Assembly (NCBI GenBank): GCA_964016885.1
Contig: CAXHJY010000486.1
Location: forward strand, 1-44,049
DNA length: 44,049 bases
Source of the DNA: Eledone cirrhosa
Taxonomy: Eukaryota
Direction of reading: 5' to 3'
Shown piece after piece: positions 26,042-26,209 of this stretch; position 1 is the first letter of the stretch, and each line of letters begins with the position of its first letter. Position numbers and translations under genes: made by a program. The notes beneath the pieces are model-generated. The model searched no databases. It was not told where the DNA came from and was given only the letters and a program-made list of their open reading frames with translations.

Positions 26042-26209
26042 TAACGAAGGAAATGTGGTAAGGAACCAGGTGGACCATAACGCACCAAAGTACTCAATAC
26101 TTGAGGTAGTAGAGTGGGTAATAGGAACCAGTAAGACCCCGACAGCTGAGCTCAAGCCGTTTCGTCGAAACGGCTTGAGCTCAGCTGTCGGGGTCTTACT
26201 GGTTCCTAT
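26042..26209. mobile_element. Minimal fold-back PLE insertion related to the 28575-31294 element
   Basis: 26042-26120 is homologous to 28575-28653. 26121-26164 and 26166-26209 are perfect 44 bp inverted arms with a 1 nt centre. Flanked by (TA)n. Confidence 0.88.

Follow-up and report, generated by a model that had tools for sequence, protein, structure and literature searches.

The insert at positions 26042-26209 of the window (the whole 44,049-nt stretch analysed) is a dead Penelope insertion of Hydra-clade-like type, arranged head-to-head and 5'-truncated to an extreme degree. Its layout, its family, the position of its junction and the two termini that it shares are read directly from the DNA. 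The reading preferred here, to which we give about an even chance, is that two cDNAs, one primed from each strand of a cut (TA)n site, both came to a halt at the foot of stem II of a hammerhead ribozyme and were then joined.

Layout of the insert and its family

The insert is 168 bp long and embedded in (TA)n. A single T at 26165 separates two 44-bp arms, 26121-26164 and 26166-26209, that are perfect inverted repeats of each other. They form the longest perfect non-simple palindrome of the window; the runner-up has arms of 25 bp, largely TA. On one side only, an unpaired tail of 79 nt (26042-26120, minus strand) is added, with six differences from 28575-28653 of a longer relative. In the element RNA, this tail would correspond to a 3' extension bounded by two putative RT start sites, a concept found in the available text of PMC11167929 and PMC8557442. 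The left arm (minus strand) is the inverted 3' half of a hammerhead, with C11.1 as its last base. In the right arm (plus strand), C11.1 (26166) is followed by GAA (26167-26169), stem III (26170-26174 paired with 26184-26188, with a palindromic loop), the cleavage-site C (26189), the 3' strand of stem I and the tail-less terminus. Stem II and the 5' catalytic box are both lacking, hence a complete hammerhead core is absent, and no ORF is present in the stub. On both outer sides, an RNA 3' end stands directly against (TA)n. A possible 10-nt target-site duplication (26033-26042 with 26210-26219) was rejected as diagnostic, as the same 10-mer is found seven times in 25780-26360.

The perfect 44 bp palindrome of the initial annotation, made from the letters alone, is borne out in the assembled sequence. 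The one-sided tail and the insert are present as well, their sizes of 80 and 170 bp being corrected to 79 and 168 bp. The terminus considered common to the stub and the element at 28575-31294 is indeed the same: the right end of the stub has the CCTAT/TA end found at 31294. Other repeats of the window include a perfect 50-bp palindrome at 15101-15150, with unique arms of 14 bp around a (TA)n centre, and a dispersed SINE-like repeat of ~190 bp (26650-26840 and at least eight other places), the copies of which are 83-92% alike; this repeat may point to a cephalopod host.

The longer relative is a 2.7-kb element, likewise a head-to-head, 5'-truncated inverted copy. Its left part (28575-29230, minus strand, 656 nt in total) consists of the tail (28575-28653) and an inverted arm of 577 nt. 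A 5'-truncated and frameshifted, Hydra-clade-like ORF for RT plus a C-terminal GIY-YIG endonuclease follows (29231-30631, plus strand), and the 3' region ends at 31294. The two arms differ at 13 of 341 sites (3.8%), and a segment of 234 nt in the left arm (28871-29104) is missing from the right one. Both features are expected if arms can stem from separate templates; later decay fits too.

For the RT piece, 517 homologues were found among 2823 candidates, many of them near 700 aa, with a best identity of 54%. No Pfam match was obtained for the two ORF pieces. When the pieces of the window were aligned with 17 homologues, the C-terminal endonuclease proved to be without CCHH and to carry CxxC and CxH motifs. 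In the window copy, CNLC is present and CKP stands in place of CKH; nearly all aligned public reads carry the base giving CKH (30576). The linker reads C-x-S-X5-C, the full CxCX5C motif being found in most aligned relatives. The N-terminal RWR/RWK and DKT/DKS of the homologues belong to a region lost to 5' truncation in this copy. The insertion target, (TA)n, matches that of the Hydra clade, and with the shared motifs it suggests that the long element is Hydra-clade-like. The clade, including Hydra-1_Obim, shares the C-terminal GIY-YIG without CCHH, the (TA)n target and a type I hammerhead near the 3' end in the part of PMC8557442 available; the linker of the relatives resembles its CxCX5C type. 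The hammerhead of Hydra-1_Obim differs in sequence from that of the long element. Abutting the left end of the long element, two inverted arms (27434-27572 and 28409-28544, 95-97% alike) lie in (TA)n around ~840 nt that resemble an endonuclease C-terminus by eye. The tail-plus-arm pattern gave 0 matches in metagenome contigs, and no relative was found in viral contigs.

The tail and left arm of the stub are 89% identical to 28575-28700, and its arms are 85% identical to both ends of the long element (seven and six differences in 44). The inner-end 17-mer of the arm occurs four times in the window, twice per element, with 0 expected (100 shuffles). No further copies of the family are present in the window besides these two. 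At 85-89% identity, the stub is best assigned to a sister subfamily of the 2.7-kb element. The description of the stub as a collapsed version of that element hence holds as to type, a short form of the same kind of element, and fails as to descent from that copy.

A short motif in the tail is shared more widely. Its sense sequence in the stub is TTGAGTACT (26089-26097, minus strand), and related loci have TTGAGCACT-like forms. In the stub and in the long copy (28622-28630), it is located 69 nt 3' of hammerhead C11.1. With a pattern picked after viewing a few of the same loci, 27 of 38 distinct related hammerheads (among them L002, L014 and L062) proved to have the motif at a distance of 62-88 nt on the 3' side of C11.1, against 2 of 28 upstream controls. 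The motif links the ORF-less stub to the clade, and it is a candidate binding or initiation signal. A literature search, in which the older subscription literature on Penelope structure was little covered, returned nothing on this motif or on truncation at a hammerhead stem II.

A predicted hammerhead with a long stem II

In descriptor search and folding, the sense strand of the left arm of the long element adopts a predicted type I hammerhead fold (28654-28772, minus strand). It comprises stem I, a UUGAAAA core (28762-28756, U3-A8), a stem II of 59 nt, GAAA and a stem III of 5 bp with a palindromic loop; the cleavage site is GUC. The basal helix of stem II has 9 bp (28752-28744 paired with 28707-28699). 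The three stems, the two core boxes, G10.1-C11.1 and an NUH site are all present in the left arm, as the U3-A8 variant. The minimum free energy is -32.0 kcal/mol (z -3.2), and stem II alone has a z of -4.9. An Rfam search at E up to 1 returned no hammerhead, its plastid and miRNA matches being generic hairpins, and no compensatory pairs occur in the two-sequence alignment. The right-hand copy (31176-31294, plus strand), which ends in the tail-less terminus, has a broken core (UUCAAAA at 31186). The initial annotation had placed the CGAAA box just 3' of stem II, and rightly so, as it directly follows stem II in both the descriptor search and the folding of the arms.

The predicted stem II is unusual in its length among related loci: 59 nt, compared with 10-25 nt in 45 of the 84 related loci, those with a detected hammerhead. 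The core variant, U3-A8, is described for the hammerheads of Schistosoma Penelope-like elements in the available part of PMC4209133, and it is present in three related Hydra-like loci (L029, L041 and L060). No such core is found in the published table of Hydra hammerheads; in supplement S2 of PMC8557442, as far as available, all have a CTGA.GA core and a short stem II, unlike the U3-A8 core and 59-nt stem II of the present family. The minimal hammerheads of the Schistosoma element Cercyon, in the same portion of PMC4209133, show the same core covariation, an extra base before stem II and a palindromic loop III, whereas the fold predicted here has a 5-bp stem III and a far longer stem II. That source also describes hammerhead pairs on opposite strands, 100-700 bp apart.

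Other hammerheads are visible in the window. A second Hydra-like element (18228-20790), 5'-truncated and without inversion, carries internally duplicated sequence in its long 3' region; its hammerhead, at 20696, is canonical (CTGATGA) and has an AU-rich stem II of ~36 nt. A hammerhead-like motif with a CTGAAGA core (minus strand, at 38571) lies in 38520-38580, beside a short TA run.

The junction and truncation in the family

In family coordinates, the last base of one arm of the stub is 28697; that of the other is 28698, or 28700 if a 2-nt CG overlap is assumed. As the basal helix of stem II starts at 28699, the stub turns at its 3' foot, to which both cDNA ends map. The CG microhomology is read against the sequence of the sister subfamily, the long element, and not against the stub's own stem II. 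The central T (26165, plus strand) is templated and not added, since the family has the same base directly 5' of C11.1 (28698 and 31250). The arms run 24 nt beyond the cleavage site; hence, the template RNA was probably uncleaved, and ribozyme cleavage was rejected as the origin of the 5' end.

A course of events can be proposed from these positions. The endonuclease of the element would cut both strands of the (TA)n site. The end of the tail would serve as the start of one cDNA, and the inner start site, 79 nt further upstream, as that of the other, both being copied from uncleaved RNA. They would stop at 28697 and at 28698-28700, where pairing in the 9-bp basal helix begins, anneal through the 2-nt CG overlap and be joined end to end. 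In the available text of PMC11167929, a Poseidon protein cuts and extends both strands in vitro, accepts uncleaved RNA and has two start sites, one at either end of the tail.

The behaviour of stem II in other copies was followed in four of nine listed public runs, aligned to 28575-30950: two contig sets of one sample (X4/X5) and two RAD runs, the reads of which begin at cut sites and favour short copies. The tail has a depth of 3.29M/2.91M in X4/X5, given as summed contig depth and thus not as copy number; at 28709 the value is 1.04M/0.91M, and at 28765, next to the core, 79k/57k. At 28765 the depth is at the level of the ORF, which ranges from 13 to 91k in X4 (median 37k). The fall inside stem II in the public runs is more than 10-fold, and the mean over 28735-28772 amounts to no more than 22-24% of the value at 28709. 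Position 28654, the equivalent of the tail-less terminus of the stub, is a family-wide second terminus (196 and 183 contigs; 1966 and 1985 reads with TA loose ends, about 2000 in each raw run).

Fifteen of the 129 joints are listed. The strand changes in the ribozyme region number three, at 28702, 28711 and 28713, and all fall on the 3' side of stem II, a strand of 20 nt (chance 0.007-0.03 if uniform). An arm-to-ORF joint at 28708 is in the same strand, which brings the listed joints there to four of 15. The other 11 are three arm-to-ORF joints further in, five inversions elsewhere, two continuations at the reference edge and one deletion. None of the 15 listed joints lies at 28697-28700. Loose ends at 28704 (1106 reads, X7) and 28717 (74 and 64 contigs) resemble diverged stem II sequence. 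Because stem II varies between subfamilies, alignment loss may explain part of the depth drop and may set the joint positions. Stem II was read through in both arms of the long copy and in the copies with arm ends at 28811, 28863, 28880 and 29079; the GC-rich stems I and III were passed by the RT.

These data give moderate support to the stall at stem II proposed in the initial annotation, in a broader form: the depth collapses inside the stem family-wide, while no peak exactly at its boundary is seen among the joints listed. Stem II is probably a leaky roadblock, with most copies of the family ending somewhere inside it and not at one base. Judged by depth and joints, the stop could lie at the foot or higher up the stem, or self-priming could have gone through the entire stem II hairpin.

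Among the 84 related loci, 14 with inverted or neighbouring repeats were inspected, and seven arm junctions were readable (three in L081 and one each in L014, L070, L075 and L079). None of the seven lies within stem II. One insert of L081 has the stub's layout, a tail and a palindrome in (TA)n, and turns 12-13 nt upstream of the core; the junction of L014 is 8 nt upstream of it. The window also contains an insert of another family with a tail and a palindrome in (TA)n (40587-41025). Its arms (40587-40912) are 91% alike and meet near 40747, and its tail runs to ~41025. Its degenerate hammerhead, with a stem II of 8 bp, is whole in both arms, so stem II was passed. As no readable junction of a relative lies in stem II and the family at 40587-41025 reads through, the stem II stop, if real, is a trait of the long-stem family. 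Two more inserts of this type (41044-41260 and 42532-42814) share a tail of ~85 nt (82%); their arms look unrelated, and no hammerhead was seen in them.

Ordinary early truncation would leave the position of the junction to chance: a poorly processive RT would make mostly short copies, and the depth drop would reflect subfamily divergence, with many copies really reaching as far as the 5' edge of stem I. The stub is a single locus, its exact junction is missing from the joints listed, the stem II loose ends are divergent, and the turning points of L081 and L014 lie 8-13 nt upstream of the core, all of which suits this explanation. We nevertheless regard it as unlikely. Copies that can be aligned at 28709 should also align over the 5' strand and the core, yet at most one quarter of the depth is found there, and four listed joints fall within a 20-nt stretch. 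Somewhat less probable is the event that the initial annotation had favoured, a single cDNA stalled at stem II that folded back or switched template onto itself. The arms are identical, and the available part of PMC3846280 takes junction palindromes of 18 and 38 bp in Penelope insertions as self-priming; the palindrome of the stub has counterparts already in print. The cDNA could also form a hairpin of 5 bp across the junction (-5.6 kcal/mol) and a long one through stem II (-14.2 kcal/mol). However, priming from the local 5-bp hairpin was rejected, as it would give a palindrome centred on TTCG; to produce the centre observed, a simple fold-back would require a stem of 2 bp closed by a 1-nt loop. 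The copy would, moreover, need to stop exactly at the second terminus of the family. Identity over 44 bp is expected under either model, and at the arm divergence of the long element (13 in 341) the P of 0 differences in 44 is ~0.18. The identical arms are hence hardly informative and do not establish a recent event or gene conversion, as had been suggested. From the sequence at the junction, two cDNAs joined through the 2-nt CG overlap would be the better fit.

The stub could also have been copied from a mobilised, non-autonomous short master, in which case its junction would be inherited and not made anew. The 3' 140 nt of the family are far more abundant than the ORF, the stub retains the tail and the conserved motif, and non-autonomous derivatives of Chlamys are known (PMC8557442, in the part available). 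On the other hand, a junction in high copy number would be expected to be one of the best-supported joints, which is not the case, with the reservation that symmetric fold-backs may be poorly detected; the listed joints differ among themselves, and the stub is without the 5' catalytic box. Such an origin is quite improbable. Hardly credible is an artefact of assembly or of chimeric reads. The locus does lie within long (TA)n tracts, which could favour one, but the mirror ends after 44 bp at a biologically defined second terminus, the tail and the left flank are not mirrored, the flanks differ, and the same layout is found in other families of the window and in L081.

Known systems and significance

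The inverted copy plus tail is an insertion pattern already published. An inverted truncated copy with a one-sided tail is standard for EN+ Penelope-like elements in the available text of PMC8557442. With the insertions described in the corresponding parts of PMC8557442, PMC3846280 and PMC11167929, the stub shares head-to-head arms with RNA 3' ends outward, the one-sided tail, a palindrome at the junction, an AT-rich target and the hammerhead in the terminal repeat. It differs from them in its tail of 79 nt, compared with the 30-40 nt usually cited, and in its arms of just 44 nt, which hold half a hammerhead and no ORF.

Short non-coding derivatives of the terminal repeats of Penelope-like elements are also known as non-LTR retrozymes (bioRxiv 10.64898/2026.07.22.740005, as far as available). 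Those are tandem repeats with whole hammerheads, whereas the stub is a single inverted insert with half a hammerhead, and its classification as a retrozyme was rejected. Taken alone, a single stub of this kind is ordinary debris. In L1 twin priming, two priming events from both target strands produce an inverted junction with short microhomology, as proposed for the stub; there, the second primer pairs within a single RNA and leaves arms without overlap, whereas the arms of the stub copy the same 3' end.

A wider proposal, held tentatively and with clearly less confidence than the joining of two cDNAs at this locus, is that the 59-nt stem II acts as a built-in RT roadblock and that the copies filling the genome are mainly half-hammerhead hairpin stubs. 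The fold, and not cleavage, would then set the length of the copies, and each head-to-head insertion would be the product of two cDNAs with separate priming, linked through microhomology. The origin of the inverted repeats of Penelope-like elements and the role of their hammerhead are named as open questions in the available parts of PMC8557442 and PMC11167929. The very many short copies and the unusually long stem II of this family offer a natural test of how truncation is set. If 5' ends cluster inside stem II here and upstream of the core in families with a short stem, RNA structure would be what sets truncation.
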